From an uncultured Acidobacteriota bacterium (GTDB lineage Bacteria; Acidobacteriota; Thermoanaerobaculia; UBA5066), in assembly GCA_963779415.1 (NCBI GenBank), contig CAVZYA010000001.1:1856001-1920000 (forward strand): a stretch of 64,000 nucleotides of DNA, read 5' to 3'. Below, piece by piece: positions 34,985 to 55,838 of this stretch; the first letter of the stretch is position 1, and each line of letters opens with the position of its first letter. Below the pieces are notes generated by a model. It saw only the letters and a program-made list of their open reading frames with translations, was not told the origin of the DNA and did no database searches. The translations under genes and the position numbers were made by a program.

Positions 34985-36556
34985 ATGCGCGCACCAATCG
35001 ACGAAAAGCTTGACGGAAGGCATCGCTTTAGCGCGGTTCTGGGGCTATTTGTCCCGGCTCTTTTCGCATACGGCTTCCTCTTCACACTCGTAACGGCAGT
35101 CGATTCCGGCCAACTCGTCCCTTTTCAGCAACAGCGACGTCGAGCGGCTGTTCCAACCAAAGTTCCTACGGTCTTACACGCAGCCGGCTTCGTTACTTAC
35201 CCTCTCGTGGCTTCCGGGGATCATCGCTATCTTCAGGATCAGAGCGGGCAGCCGTTTCCCATTCTGGGGCGAGTCGCGTGGGACATACCCTCGCTGAGTC
35301 TCTCGGACTATCAGCTTTTCGTCGACGATACGGTGGCGAAGGGCTTTAACGCCATCCTGCTCAACTTTCTGGACCGGGATGGATATAACGCTCCGTTCGA
35401 CGGAAACAACCAGCTTCCGTTCATCAAGAAACTCGACGGCACGGTATGGGACGGCTCGATGGCGGCGGGCGTGAATCCCGATTACACGACGCCCAACGAG
35501 ACCTACTGGCAGCACATCGACGGGATGCTCGATTACGCGTCTCAGAAGGGATTGCTTTGTCTTGTATTCCCGAGTTACGTCGGCCAGAACGGCAATCTCA
35601 CCGCCGGCTGGATGCAGCCGATGACCTCCAACGGGCCTACAAGGATGAGCGCCTACGGAGCCTTTCTCGCCAACAGGTACAAGACCTACGGAAATCTCGT
35701 CTGGATGCTGGGGGGGGATTACGGCTCGCCACCGGCCTCGTTCTCCGCGCCGGAGCTGGCCGTCGAGCAGGCTCTGCTTTCGGGTTTGAAGAGCGTCGCC
35801 GGCCAGCAGAGCGTCAACTTTTCCGCCGATTGGGCTGGCGATTCGATCTATACGTCGCAGACCGATGCCACGCTGAAGGCGGCCGGAACGCTTCAGGGGG
35901 CTTACACATGGAACTCCGTTTCGGAGTGGTGCCGGAGCGGCTACGCGGCGACCCCGGCGATGCCCGCGTATCTCGTCGAAGGACCTTATGACGAGGAAGG
36001 GCCGGATGGAACGGACGACAATCCAGGCGCCACCCAGCCCGTGCGCCGCTTCCAGTGGTGGAGCGTTCTTTCCAGCATAGGCGGCTACGTCACGGGCAAC
36101 GGCTACGTCTGGAAGTTCATGCCCGGCATCTGGAACAATCACCTGAACACTCAGGGCGCGCAGGACATGGCGCGACTCAATGCGTTCGTTCGATCCATCG
36201 CCTGGTACCACCTGGTCCCGTCCGGTCTGAATGGCATGAAGACGATCATCACGGCGGGCGGCTCGAGCGTGACGGCGTCGGACTACGTGGCCGCGGCGGC
36301 CGACCCGGCCGGAACGCTTCTCGTCGCCTACGTCCCGCCCGACCACACGGGGACGATCACCGTGGACATGACCGTCATGGGCGGAGCGGCGCGAGCACGC
36401 TGGTTCAACCCGGCGACGGCAGCCTATACGCTGATCAGTTCGAGTCTCGCCAATACCGGCACCTACACCTTCACACCGCCCGGCGACAATGGCTCGTGGT
36501 ATACCGACTGGGTCCTCGTTCTGGATCCGGCGACTTCGACACATGCATTGAGGTAG
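34985..36556 (+). CDS. DUF4038 (GH140 apiosidase-like) protein with C-terminal collagen-binding-like domain, N-terminal TM, no SLH
   Basis: [52 protein letters not shown]. Confidence 0.8.
   Translation: MRAPIDEKLDGRHRFSAVLGLFVPALFAYGFLFTLVTAVDSGQLVPFQQQRRRAAVPTKVPTVLHAAGFVTYPLVASGDHRYLQDQSGQPFPILGRVAWDIPSLSLSDYQLFVDDTVAKGFNAILLNFLDRDGYNAPFDGNNQLPFIKKLDGTVWDGSMAAGVNPDYTTPNETYWQHIDGMLDYASQKGLLCLVFPSYVGQNGNLTAGWMQPMTSNGPTRMSAYGAFLANRYKTYGNLVWMLGGDYGSPPASFSAPELAVEQALLSGLKSVAGQQSVNFSADWAGDSIYTSQTDATLKAAGTLQGAYTWNSVSEWCRSGYAATPAMPAYLVEGPYDEEGPDGTDDNPGATQPVRRFQWWSVLSSIGGYVTGNGYVWKFMPGIWNNHLNTQGAQDMARLNAFVRSIAWYHLVPSGLNGMKTIITAGGSSVTASDYVAAAADPAGTLLVAYVPPDHTGTITVDMTVMGGAARARWFNPATAAYTLISSSLANTGTYTFTPPGDNGSWYTDWVLVLDPATSTHALR
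35197..36532. repeat. ~1.34 kb near-identical inverted repeat, copy A (partner 50494-51829)
   Basis: Direct comparison: same protein from YPLVASGDH to VLDPA with only a few substitutions, mostly at the 3' end. Confidence 0.95.
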
Positions 36557-36589
36557 ACGTGCCGCTGCCGGTACCCGGCATGGGTCCGA

Positions 36590-36860
36590 GCAGCCGCCAG
36601 CTTCCCCAGGCGCCGCCGAAGCAGCCGAACTTCTTCTTCTACCGGAAGTAAGTCGGTTCGGCCACCCCCATCTTCCGCCAGATCTCCTCCACCCGCGTTC
36701 CCGCCTTCCCCCGCCGCTGGGCCACCGCGATCTGCTCCTCCGAGTACCGGCGCTTCCTCATCGATCCGTCCTCCCGGACCCTTCCCGAGCCTCAGAACGT
36801 ACCGAACGCCACGCCATTTACGAGAGCCGCCCCGGACCAGGAATCGGGGAGAAGACCCGG
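36590..36860 (-). mobile_element. Degenerate IS3-family (IS407-group) orfA remnant plus left end
   Basis: MRKRRYSEEQIAVAQRRGKAGTRVEEIWRKMGVAEPTYFR*KKKFG with an internal stop. Confidence 0.75.
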
Positions 36861-52850: not shown

Positions 52851-52883
52851 CCGTGTCTCCACCTTCCCTCGGCCCGCTGTGTG

Positions 52884-55838
52884 TCAGTGGAGGAATGGGA
52901 TGTTGAAGGCCCGCACGAGGAAGATCGCCATCTGCCAGCGGGTCAGGGGGGTGTTCGGGCAGTACTTGCCGCCGCCGCAGCCAGCCGTGACGCCCCCCGC
53001 GTAGATGTAATGAATGAAGCGGCAGGTGCCATCCGTCGGCTGGACGTCGCCGAAGAGGGAGTTCCCTCCCGCCGTGCAGTTGTAGGAGCCGACGGAGGGG
53101 ACGGTACCGCTCGTGGGGACGGTGCCACTCGGACCGACCATTCCCACAGCCAGAAAGACGGCCATCTGGCTGCGGGTGACGTTCGAGGAGGGGCAGTACT
53201 TGCCACCGCCGCAGCCGGCGGTGATTCCCTGGGCGTAGACGTAGTGGATCGAGGGGCAGGCAGCGTCGGCCGGTGCCACGTCTCCGAAGAGGGACGTGCC
53301 ACCGGTGGTGCAGTTATAGGTTCCAACACCCGGCACGGTCCCGGACGTGGGAACCGGCACGCCGGGTCCGAGCAGGGAGCGTGCGAGGAGCACAGCCATC
53401 TGCCAGCGGGTGACGTCGCTGGCGGGACAGTAGTTGCCGCCACCGCAGCCGGCGGTGACGCCATTGTGGAAGATACTTTCGACAAAGGGGTAGGAGACGT
53501 CCGAGGTGGGCACGTCGGTGAAGCTCTTGCCAACGTGGAGAGTCCAGGTCCTGGCGACGCCGTTGCTGAGCGTCTCGAGGAAGGTGGCGTCCCAGTGGGC
53601 GGCGGGGCGGGTGGCCGGGTTGGAGACGGAGAGGCGATAGGAGGGCCCTCCGGCCGAGAAGCTGTCGGCGGTGGCGCCGGGAGCGATGGTGCCGTAGCCG
53701 GCAGCCGAATCGAGGAGGGAATAGGTCGCCCCGACAGGACCTGTGAAGGCAGAAGCCGTACCTGTGAGGGCGGCCGGGGAAGCACCGATGTTCTTCCAGG
53801 AGGCGTTGACGAGGAGGGTTTCTCCCGGCTCCAGAATCTTGTTGACGTTCGAGACCGTTCCGCCCGTGGCGTGAGCGTCCTCGACCAGACCGGCGGCCTG
53901 GACGGCGACTGTCGGTGTCTGGGTCGGCGTCGGCTCGGGTCGGCGTGGGAGTCGATGTAGAGCTCGGCGGTGGCGTCGGCGTCCGCGTCGGGGTCGGAGT
54001 CGCGGTCGGAGTGCTCGTTGGGGTCCCTGTCGGCGTGCGAGTCGGAGTTGCCGTCGCTGTCGGAGCGACTGTCGGCGTCCACGTCGGCGTGGACGTTGGG
54101 GTCCGCGTCGGCGTCGCCGTCGGCGTCCGAGTCGGCGTCGCCGTGGCTGTCGCAGCCACTGTCGGCGTCAGGGTCGGAGTGGGCGTGGGGGTCGGCGTCG
54201 CCGTCGGCGTACGAGTCGGCGTGGATGTGGGGGTCAACGTCGACGTCACCGTCGGTGTACGGGTTGGAGTCGGGGTCGCCGTGGCCGTGGGAGGGACTGT
54301 CGGCGTCCGAGTCGGAGTGGACGTCGGGGTTGGCGTCGGCGTCGGTGTATTGGTCGGAGCCGGAGTTAATGTGGGAGTAGGCGTTACGGTCGGGGTTGGC
54401 GTCGGGGAGCCTGACACCGTCAAAACGACGAAGGTGGCGAAGGCGGGTCCGGTCGACGAAGGAGCCGCATAGCCGACAGGCGTGGCCGGCGTCAGCCCCA
54501 TCATCGGCACGGAGACCGTCCCCCCGCCATATGTCCCGCTGACCACCGGTGTCCCGTAGAAGTTCTGCGCGTTGCGGATCTCGTAGGCCGCGCCTGCGCT
54601 CACGGTCCCCGTCAGGTCCACCGCCTGCGTCCCGCTCCCGTCCCAGTTGTCGACGACGATCGTCGCCCGCCCCGCCTCGTACGCGTTCGGCAGAATCGTC
54701 ACATGGTCCTGCGTCGGCGGGCTCGTCCTCGAATAGTACGTGTTGTTCGGGTAGTCGCCCGGCACAAACCCGCTCAGGTCCCCCACGAACGTGTTCCCCG
54801 TGATGGTCTCCCCGGCCCGGCAGCCGGTGCTCCCCGGCGAAAACACACCGCCGCTGACGTTCGTCAGGTAGTTCCCGGTCACCGTCACGCCCGCGCACTT
54901 CGTCGTGGAGTACCCCATCGTCAGCGTCGACAACCACGAGAAGTTCCCCGTCACCGACGTCCCACCGATGTCGAACCCGCTCTCCCCTCCCACCAGCGAC
55001 GTCCCACGCCACCACACGTTCCCGTCCACCTGCGAGTCTATGAACCCCGCCGTCCCCGATCCGTAGGCATGCAGGTTGTAGCCGAACTGGTCGAAAAGAA
55101 TGTTGTGCTTGATGACCTTCGTGCCGCCGTATCCCAGATTCTGCGCGTAGATGGCGTGCCCGTGCGGCCGGTCCGGTGCGTTCCACCCGTTGTAGTAGAT
55201 GATGTTCCCGTAGTACTCCGAGTTCGTGGATATCGACGTCAGATCCAGCCCCTCGCCCGTGTCATGGATGACGACGTTGATGATCTTCGTCCCCGGTCCC
55301 CACACCCCAATACCCGAGTCACGCGCGTCCACCGGGTTCGACCCCGGCGTCGGGTTCCACCGGTTCGGGTTCGAGTCCATCACCTCGAACCCCCAGTACC
55401 ATGTGTACGCCCCGTTACCTTGAGAATCCAGCCGTCGGTACCGAGAACCTCGGGGTTCACGTTCCCGTCCAGCGTCGCCCGCTCCCCCGGATACTGCCGC
55501 ACCACGATCGGCAGGTCCGACGTCCCCGTCAGAGAGCTCGTGAACAGTCCCGTATACGTCCCCCCACGCAGCCAGATCGTGTCCCCGGGATGCACCGCCG
55601 ATGGCTGCGACAGCGCCGTCTGAAGTGCCCACGGATTCGATATCGTCCCCGTCCCCGGCCCCGTGCCCGTCGTCCCCGTCGGTGAAACGTAGAAGTCACT
55701 GACGGAAGCTGGAGTCGTGAACGACGTCAGAAGAAGGAGGCACGCCAAAACCAACCAGGCGGTCGGATTGAATCTCGAGCTGCCCTGGCGGATCCGAAAC
55801 TCAGCGATAGGAAGAGTCCTCTCTTCAGAGGGTAGCAT
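52884..55838 (-). CDS. Beta-helix + Pro/Thr linker + Cys-rich SLH x3 surface protein (frameshifts ~55416 and ~53935)
   Basis: Three ORF pieces joined; beta-helix nearly identical to 47400-48680; SLH nearly identical to 45866-46700. Confidence 0.85.
53900..54410 (-). repeat. Pro/Thr-rich low-complexity linker
   Basis: [12 protein letters not shown]...[11 protein letters not shown] repeats; distal part shared with 49985-50130. Confidence 0.9.

Follow-up and report, generated by a model that had tools for sequence, protein, structure and literature searches.

Modular glycanases that are held at the cell surface by S-layer homology (SLH) repeats are well known from Gram-positive bacteria, where they include cell-surface xylanases, pullulanases and the Paenibacillus chitinase ChiW. 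Here we describe an array of seven genes that appears to encode a family of comparable design in an uncultured Acidobacteriota bacterium (Thermoanaerobaculia; UBA5066). The array occupies positions 34985-55838 of a stretch of 64,000 nucleotides (nt), hereafter called the window (assembly GCA_963779415.1, contig CAVZYA010000001.1, positions 1,856,001-1,920,000, forward strand), and its products are built from recurring modules denoted A, B, X, I, L, Y and S. As in the Gram-positive glycanases, a signal-like leader is combined with one or more putative glycan-active domains, with spacers and with three SLH repeats. Unlike those, the array resides in an Acidobacteriota host and in a glycan-synthesis island and carries the motif G-C-G-G-G-x-Y-C-P in its SLH repeats; moreover, its closest relatives swap SLH for an unnamed C-terminal domain, and no pyruvyltransferase was reported in the window. 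According to one account (PMC4232325), SLH repeats occur mostly in triplicate, stand N-terminally in S-layer proteins and bind pyruvylated wall polymers, the pyruvyltransferase being CsaB; in the array, unlike in those S-layer proteins, they are C-terminal, behind predicted enzyme domains.

A preliminary description of this stretch had likened the array to the sap genes of Campylobacter fetus and read it as an S-layer diversification locus. The sap genes encode lattice proteins without enzyme domains that share a conserved N-terminal anchoring block, and one gene is expressed at a time: the single promoter sits on a segment that can invert, with opposed cassettes on either side. Chimeras of sapAB are mentioned in a further study (PMC4943207). 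Like sap, the array comprises homologous genes with conserved blocks (here 1.0-1.3 kilobases (kb) at 97-99.8% identity), recombination and chimeras. It departs from sap in that its products carry enzyme domains and C-terminal SLH anchors, its genes are co-directional with leaders of their own, and neither an invertible promoter nor an inverton was found, so that the S-layer interpretation does not hold. In tufA and tufB, an inverted gene pair is under concerted evolution by gene conversion. The array resembles this pair, since its paralogues, an inverted pair included, are near-identical within a genome and diverge between species; it differs in that the unit is a protein module set in differing gene architectures, with A, B and tail each having a tract history of its own. 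Concerted evolution of duplicated genes by conversion is the closest mechanistic analogy. A full-text literature search returned no paper on tandem beta-helix-SLH arrays in Acidobacteriota.

Module copies within and between genomes

We consider it probable that the array encodes a family of secreted, surface-anchored, glycan-cleaving enzymes whose modules have been homogenised by repeated homologous gene conversion between paralogues. The proposal starts from the domain identities, the mosaic tracts, the identities within and between genomes and the conserved layout described below, and extends from these to a likely substrate, to putative anchoring at the wall and to a presumed dependence on general recombination.

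Near-identical DNA copies in both direct and inverted orientation, pointed out in the preliminary description, go far beyond what chance would give and are readily recovered when the window is compared with itself by blastn: 46 pairs of at least 100 nt emerge, including blocks at 97.2-99.4% identity (Table 1; genes are named by the first coordinate given there), and the interval 30000-60000 holds 17 direct repeat families and 23 inverted pairs. At the edges of the A and B tracts similarity drops away within a few bases on either side, and the flanks are unrelated. The tail of the 36945 gene is merely 77-78% identical to the other three tails. That of the 52884 gene is composite: two successive tracts agree almost perfectly with two different paralogues (Table 1), and the 3' flank returns to the 48961 gene, with which it shares 39 of 43 positions, so that three tracts from two alternating donors form a mosaic. 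Over 119 informative sites this tail shows 12 runs, compared with a mean of 59 after shuffling, and none of 100000 shuffles gave a number as low. One breakpoint lies in the middle of module Y and one at the stop codon, whereas all remaining tract ends coincide with ends of homology, which points to general homologous recombination rather than to a site-specific enzyme. The array is a real and well-resolved mosaic of paralogues, in which homologous recombination between module copies has clearly happened.

Relatives were sought in species-representative genomes; the best 80 of 249 confirmed stretches were kept and correspond to 61 loci. The protein of the 45865 gene has 873 relatives at an expectation value (E) <= 0.001 among 8000 scored candidates, none of them above 79% identity, and those that bear a name are 'S-layer homology domain-containing protein' entries from metagenome-assembled genomes (MAGs) of Acidobacteriota and Thermoanaerobaculia. 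Tandem A-SLH arrays are found again in many loci from Thermoanaerobaculia MAGs, and internal repeats (at least 300 nt, 85% identity or more) occur in 10 of the 61 loci. Closest are two loci from Acidobacteriota/Thermoanaerobaculia MAGs, L001 (79%) and L002 (82%). L001 shares the flanks of the window array, with Wzt on one side and an ABC permease and ATPase on the other, as well as its order: inverted B, A genes, A-head-B hybrid, A. Its hybrid passes from A to B at the identical residue, immediately ahead of the conserved '..YPLV..' motif, and a Pro/Thr linker and then a tail follow; its A module has 79% protein identity to that of the window. The fusion therefore arose before the two lineages separated and is not a fresh product of shuffling.

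On this conserved layout the copies group by genome. The two B copies are 98.5% identical in the window and 98.4% identical in L001, yet only 72-73% identical between the genomes; for the A pair that flanks the hybrid the corresponding values are 98.6%, 97.6% and 82-84%. Such grouping argues for repeated gene conversion, that is, for concerted evolution. The B pair makes the firm case for conversion, the leaders of the A genes being too diverged to establish positional orthology. Alternatively, the near-identical modules might be young duplications that arose separately in each genome, in place of old paralogues kept alike by conversion. High identity taken alone fits recent copying, and the A-gene leaders lack orthology between the window and L001. 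Both genomes, however, would then have had to build the same A-head-B fusion independently and at the same residue, and the anchor-headed B gene opposite the hybrid, with the same orientation and flanks, would have been needed twice as well; furthermore, a single duplication cannot produce a 52884 tail that alternates two donors in three tracts. We hold this scenario to be quite unlikely.

It is also conceivable that the repeats were collapsed, chimeric or falsely homogenised during assembly or polishing, and that the mosaic is non-biological. At least 11 frame breaks in ~11 kb would fit a locally poor consensus, and related loci from long-read-style MAGs contain many split A copies. We nevertheless judge such an artefact most unlikely, because the independently assembled L001 has the same near-identical module pairs (97.8%, 97.9% and 98.1%, the last being a third homogenised A pair) and because a third genome encodes two proteins, P0004 and P0005, which share an identical prefix of 466 residues and then continue into a PKD or a Pro/Thr spacer. 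In addition, the tract edges match the ends of homology and are bordered by unrelated flanks, and copies that are 77-80% alike elsewhere would not cross-map in polishing.

The preliminary description had envisaged a recombination-driven shuffling of surface proteins. Its recombination is borne out by the sharp tracts and the three-tract mosaic, but the visible outcome is that copies are made alike, not diversified, and comparison with relatives told against recent rearrangement, because L001 shares the layout, the hybrid junction and the inverted B pair, making the hybrid old. The accompanying notion of a module kit is real as an evolutionary pattern: tail types and leader-spacer combinations differ among relatives, and protein P0001, which has 79% overall identity to the product of the 45865 gene, brings together the leader found in the 52884 gene and the Ig spacer found in the 45865 gene. 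With modules near-identical in each of two genomes while spacers and anchors differ, the locus offers a clean natural example of concerted evolution at the level of modules.

Predicted activities of the modules

What might these proteins do? Module B is, judging from its sequence, a GH140-type 'apiosidase-like' hydrolase. Pfam places both copies in Apiosidase-like PF13204 (E 7.4e-43 and 2.2e-42; 147.8 and 146.2 bits against a cut-off of 26.5; profile positions 3-319 of 320 covered), presumably the family that formerly went by the name DUF4038, and adds Collagen_bind_2 PF12904. In the 48961 gene PF13204 (E 2.2e-42) and SLH co-occur in one polypeptide.

Module A, according to its structural model, is polysaccharide-lyase-like, with a PL9-like right-handed beta-helix. 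The AlphaFold model, based on an alignment of 17 sequences, reached a predicted local distance difference test score (pLDDT) of 84.4 and a predicted template-modelling score (pTM) of 0.89. Foldseek found 79 PDB matches to it at E <= 0.001, headed by the pectate lyase Pel9A (1ru4; E 5e-8; template-modelling (TM) scores 0.51 / 0.55); further matches are alginate lyases, rhamnogalacturonan lyase, PL6, GH136 and GH120 enzymes, phage tailspike depolymerases and the Vibrio matrix lyase RbmB. A resembles Pel9A, RbmB and other beta-helix lyases in this fold and in that a lyase gene lies beside genes that make polysaccharide. Unlike Pel9A, it falls below the curated family cut-offs, and its sequence identity to the best PDB matches (1ru4, 6kfn, 5olr, PL6 lyases and 9ozl) is only 11-17%. 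A profile search of the PDB with A gave weak matches (6kfn, E 1.4e-4), and an NCBIfam search with 11 proteins gave nothing near any cut-off. The lyase-like fold is contained within the SLH-bearing 45865 gene and, as a 99% copy, in the 52884 gene.

The remaining modules would serve as spacers and anchors. S matches Pfam SLH in four genes (E 1e-12 to 3e-14) and consists of three repeats of 78 residues (234 nt), each with the G-C-G-G-G-x-Y-C-P motif in translation; at 39213-39763 Tandem Repeats Finder reports the 234-nt period in 2.4 copies. I is a weak Ig_7 / PKD-like match (Pfam E 5e-7 to 5e-3), and L is a Pro/Thr linker. The shared modules of the preliminary description thus exist, B, S, I and L as Pfam or compositional features and A by weak Pfam evidence and clear structure. 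Y, a further module of ~133 residues between spacer and SLH in all four SLH tails, had escaped it. Pfam is silent on Y in whole-protein scans, and for a 137-residue frame covering most of it (46420-46830) found nothing at E up to 0.1. X, a putative small beta-sandwich in the preliminary description, is homologous between the 36945 gene and the insert of the 39976 gene. Its AlphaFold model (6-sequence alignment) failed, with pLDDT 40 and pTM 0.31, and was all-beta by DSSP; an ESM Atlas search with the X-X region of L002 returned unnamed clusters only, with recognition below the usual level. At E up to 0.1 Pfam found nothing for X pieces, the L002 C-terminal domain, the frames of a 780-nt gap (52170-52883) and five other unassigned frames; one further unassigned frame has a weak Glyco_hydro_57 match (E 0.013, below cut-off). 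By eye, the hydrophobic leaders end just before a conserved DFYVSPTG motif.

We envision a scenario whereby the catalytic heads, a PL9-like right-handed beta-helix (A) and a GH140-like hydrolase (B), both of predicted activity, are joined via interchangeable spacers (Ig/PKD-like or Pro/Thr linker) to a C-terminal wall anchor composed of Y and three SLH repeats. The tethered enzymes would most likely act on the surface glycan of the cell itself, by trimming, remodelling or releasing it, or else attack neighbouring glycans, in the setting of an ABC-transporter-type polysaccharide synthesis island of a Thermoanaerobaculia-like genome. Each conversion tract would extend to the end of homology or halt at an arbitrary point, and copies would consequently remain alike inside each genome even as the family diverges from one species to the next; in the longer term, entire tails may be swapped among the genes of a locus. 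For annotation, this predicts that the array genes are better read as wall-anchored glycan-cleaving enzymes of a polysaccharide island than as S-layer proteins.

Tail types among related loci

Across the 61 loci the SLH module is present in 16 and the unnamed C-terminal domain in four, the two never occurring in one locus. In the window, SLH tails end four genes and the unnamed domain ends none, though the heads are shared with relatives. The unnamed domain (~120 residues) starts near a conserved C-R-x-x-D-T-R and ends in V-N-G-Y-F, and Pfam is silent on it. It ends four genes of L001, both B genes included, and further genes in L002, L023 and L020, and in the closest relatives it stands on A, B and X-I genes in the position otherwise occupied by Y-SLH. 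This domain could be another type of envelope anchor. Because matching heads (A, B and X-X-I) in the window and in L001/L002 carry the tail type of their own locus throughout, modules do move, on an evolutionary time scale. That the anchor type is uniform inside a locus and different among close relatives hints at enzyme specificity and anchor chemistry that follow the glycan and envelope of each lineage.

L002 further contains two tandem X-X-Ig-PKD genes (2715-5177 and 5164-7419) that are 88.7% alike. Relative to the gene for A with X, its block of GNAT, deacetylase and two A genes is inverted compared with the window. The genome that encodes P0001 also has P0009, an 834-residue prediction in which an A module is joined to a GT2 glycosyltransferase, either a true fusion or read-through into a neighbour.

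Switching and surface variation

Could the same recombination serve to vary the surface? One might suppose that the cassettes recombine, that frame-broken copies act as silent donors and that individual cells display different anchored proteins; a crossover in the inverted B copies would turn round ~14 kb, and the two B genes would thereby swap the linker-SLH tail. The mosaic tracts establish that segmental conversion occurs, a 1.3-kb inverted repeat with 3 mismatches is at hand, and broken copies lie beside intact ones. The break of the hybrid falls in a C7 run, a possible slippage site, and four of the seven runs of at least 7 bases are in the array; P0001 mixes the 52884-gene leader with the 45865-gene Ig spacer. 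Against these stand the layout and hybrid held in common with L001, whose A module is 79% identical in protein, and the fact that copies are visibly made alike. Each gene, moreover, has its own start and leader and is thus no promoterless cassette. The four tail-bearing A/B genes all lie on the minus strand, each again with its own start and leader, and exchange among such co-directional genes deletes or duplicates them and would not switch them. The frame breaks themselves are perhaps assembly errors, given that A copies are split in 27 of 53 cases against 0 of 44 (see below).

Machinery for switching was equally elusive. As the preliminary description had noted, the window contains no dedicated recombinase gene, and the sole trace of a mobile element is a transposase remnant of 40 residues with a helix-turn-helix (HTH) domain. 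Between 36400 and 56200 we found 0 promoter-like sites where 2.4 were expected, in a scan limited to the sigma-70 type, and 7 terminator-like sites where 9.5 were expected; both counts are uninformative. Four intergenic stretches yielded one perfect 13-nt inverted repeat (52334-52346 / 52515-52527, enclosing 168 nt); it sits in the 780-nt non-coding gap upstream of the hybrid, a gap without a match in the 61 loci, and is not conserved in relatives. On balance a surface-variation system seems unlikely to us.

A more elaborate version, to which we give little credence, casts the array as a contingency locus for envelope-tethered glycanases, operated by a 14-kb flip between the flanking B copies, by unequal exchange of A and by slippage at G/C runs. 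If this were true, a reversible flip would move the linker-SLH anchor between the B genes, the hybrid gene would be gained or lost through unequal exchange of the 99% direct A copies, and slippage would toggle genes on and off. Cells would then differ in the sets of anchored and released enzymes that act on their own surface glycan, and the clustered frame breaks would in part represent real heterogeneity among the sequenced cells.

Gene models and frame breaks

All seven coordinates by which the genes had first been identified are real gene ends: an ATG at 34985, GTG-ATG at 36942/36945, stops at 39976, 44440, 45865, 48961 and 52884, and an ATG at 55838. The gene models behind them needed amendment, as just three of the seven (34985, 44440 and 45865) are open in this assembly and the other four are interrupted, and as Y had been missed in the four SLH tails. 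The gene for A with an X insert (39976) is real and has a homologue in L002, but it ends near 42157, and the GNAT and deacetylase frames had been wrongly merged into it. Its match to L002 is spread over frames -1/-2/-3; in the intact L002 open reading frame (ORF) of 797 residues, an X-type domain interrupts a beta-helix at about residues 245-445. The 36945 gene runs through frames 3/2/3 when aligned by tblastn with the 45865 protein and through 3/1/2/3/2 with two intact L002 homologues, and its first X contains a garbled stretch in the alignment. In the hybrid the leader and the first ~70 residues are in one frame and the remainder in another, the shift lying at a C7 run (51976-51982). The 52884 gene lacks 1 base pair (bp) near 55414 compared with its 99% paralogue, and it changes frame again at the end of the linker (~53900-54170).

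Table 1. Positions of array genes, repeat tracts and other features (window coordinates unless L001 or L002 is named)
Feature	Position	Strand or orientation	Evidence or identity
Gene B1: N-terminal hydrophobic anchor or signal, predicted GH140-type 'apiosidase-like' domain, Collagen_bind_2 beta-domain; tail-less; open, 523 residues	34985..36556	+	PF13204 E 7.4e-43; PF12904 E 1.9e-9
Gene X-X-I-I-Y-SLHx3; at least 4 frame changes, more inside first X	36945..39788	+	tblastn frames; Pfam Ig_7, SLH
Gene A with X-type insert in beta-helix (insert ~40770-41400); at least 4 frame changes	39976..42157	-	matches residues 3-791 of intact 797-residue ORF L002:7490-9880(-)
Gene A alone: signal-like leader and lyase-like beta-helix; open, 457 residues	44440..45813	-	78% nt identity to other A copies
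Gene A-I-I-Y-SLHx3; open, 1000 residues	45865..48867	-	Pfam SLH, PKD-like; fold model of A part
Hybrid gene: signal, first ~110 A residues, B, Pro/Thr linker, Y, SLHx3; one frame change	48961..52169	-	same fusion, same junction residue in L001
Gene A-linker-Y-SLHx3; two frame changes	52884..55838	-	ATG at 55838
B-copy pair	35197-36532 vs 51829-50494	inverted	99.4% over 1336 nt (blastn)
B conversion tract	35197..36496 vs 50530-51829	inverted	3 mismatches in 1300 nt (global alignment)
A-copy pair	47398-48681 vs 54415-55697	direct	99.07% over 1284 nt; 11 mismatches, one 1-bp gap
Tail pair	45864-46882 vs 52883-53901	direct	97.2%
Tail pair	45865-46882 vs 48961-49978		92.8% (self-blastn)
Repeat pair	48921-50433 vs 52844-54324		89.6% (self-blastn)
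Older pairs	38436-39789 vs 47208-45864; 44465-45742 vs 47405-48682		77-80% (self-blastn)
Tail tract, 52884 gene	52896..53682		786/787 identical to 45865 gene; 94.2% to 48961 gene
Tail tract, 52884 gene	53685..53939		252/255 identical to 48961 gene; 81.5% to 45865 gene
Pro/Thr linker array, hybrid gene	49988..50488		90-nt unit x 4.7 copies at 50047-50466 (Tandem Repeats Finder)
Unnamed C-terminal domain	L001 6815-7180, 9426-9672, 11558-11923, 16334-16702		
Unnamed C-terminal domain	L002 4818-5177, 7060-7419, 11568-11933		
Insertion sequence (IS)-type transposase N-terminus remnant (HTH_Tnp_1), 40 codons then TAG	36642..36761	-	PF01527 E 4.3e-6, 27.3 bits vs cut-off 24.1
GNAT acetyltransferase frame (stop-to-stop)	42527..43477	-	Pfam Acetyltransf_9 E 3.5e-7; outside module family; L002 homologue beside A genes
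Polysaccharide deacetylase frame (stop-to-stop)	43396..44370	-	Pfam Polysacc_deac_1 E 2.9e-12; outside module family; L002 homologue beside A genes, 73% identical

The frame breaks cluster: four genes spanning ~11 kb contain at least 11 of them, and the remaining ~53 kb of the window contain 1-2 (binomial p ~5e-8). Codon-position G+C is still strong in most of the broken pieces. Among related loci, with assembly type judged by contig names and with ten loci of unclear names and copies covering <250 residues excluded, A copies are split over frames in 27 of 53 cases in 19 long-read-style loci and in 0 of 44 in 32 short-read-style loci; L001 likewise has a split ABC permease. We rejected the breaks as proof of pseudogenes, because a C-methyltransferase outside the array is split too and because splits are confined to long-read-style loci. 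We accordingly describe the four genes as interrupted in the present assembly; assembly indels may account for several of the apparent pseudogenes. The sugar C-methyltransferase in question (25136-26555, +) is divided over two frames, with Methyltransf_13 and a methyltransferase domain in one and Methyltransf_14 in the other, and its shift lies in a non-homopolymer context.

Of the homopolymer runs of at least 7 bases in the window, 4/7 lie in array genes. Both B copies have a G8/C8 run at the matching place (35710-35717 and 51309-51316), in frame; the last SLH repeat of the hybrid contains G8 at 49023-49030, and its frame break is the C7 run named above.

Several points weigh against the concerted evolution of tethered glycan-cleaving enzymes that we favour. 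Enzyme function, substrate and localisation of the A and B proteins are predicted from sequences and models. Pfam recognises A weakly, as Beta_helix (27.9 bits against a cut-off of 25.9), and its first ~80 residues match NCBIfam PelN at E 1.4e-8 but with 34 bits against a cut-off of 740. Pfam reported a pyruvyltransferase family, the usual partner of SLH, for none of the window frames scanned. With four of seven genes broken in this assembly, part of the family is perhaps non-functional. The A-gene leaders of the window and L001 are too diverged for positional orthology, and the A genes may instead reflect parallel recent duplication. Every assembly that shows near-identical modules has long-read-style contig names, without short-read confirmation. 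Finally, this recombination may at the same time serve variation from cell to cell.

Genomic setting

The window has a G+C content of 64.9% and contains zero N; a search of its whole length with Rfam gave 0 matches. Location in a glycan island, as first proposed, is confirmed by the 25 of 34 frames scanned outside the array that have a Pfam family, mostly glycosyltransferases, Wzt/Wzm ABC transport, Wzz-kinase and sugar-nucleotide enzymes. Around the array are GT1/GT2/GT4 families, two Wzt ATPases, Wzm, Wzz-kinase, UDP-glucose dehydrogenase, an aminotransferase, sugar epimerases and two PMT_2-like proteins.

The two Wzt-type ABC ATPases (4747-5277 and 32687-32157) are inverted relative to each other and 75% identical over 534 nt, and the island has two separate glycan gene sets. 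An island with two such ATPases and two glycan gene sets may serve two ABC-exported glycans. A 2.2-kb inverted duplication (12765-14950, +, and 55985-58173, -; 78%) comprises a PMT_2-like membrane glycosyltransferase and, upstream of it, a small divergent frame. One of the copies borders the array directly, and the copy at 13-15 kb shifts frame near its C-terminus. A second, decayed HTH copy with stops lies at ~12554-12746 (-) and matches 36642-36761 at 76.7% in DNA; one HTH remnant stands directly after gene B1 and the other directly before a PMT_2-like gene.

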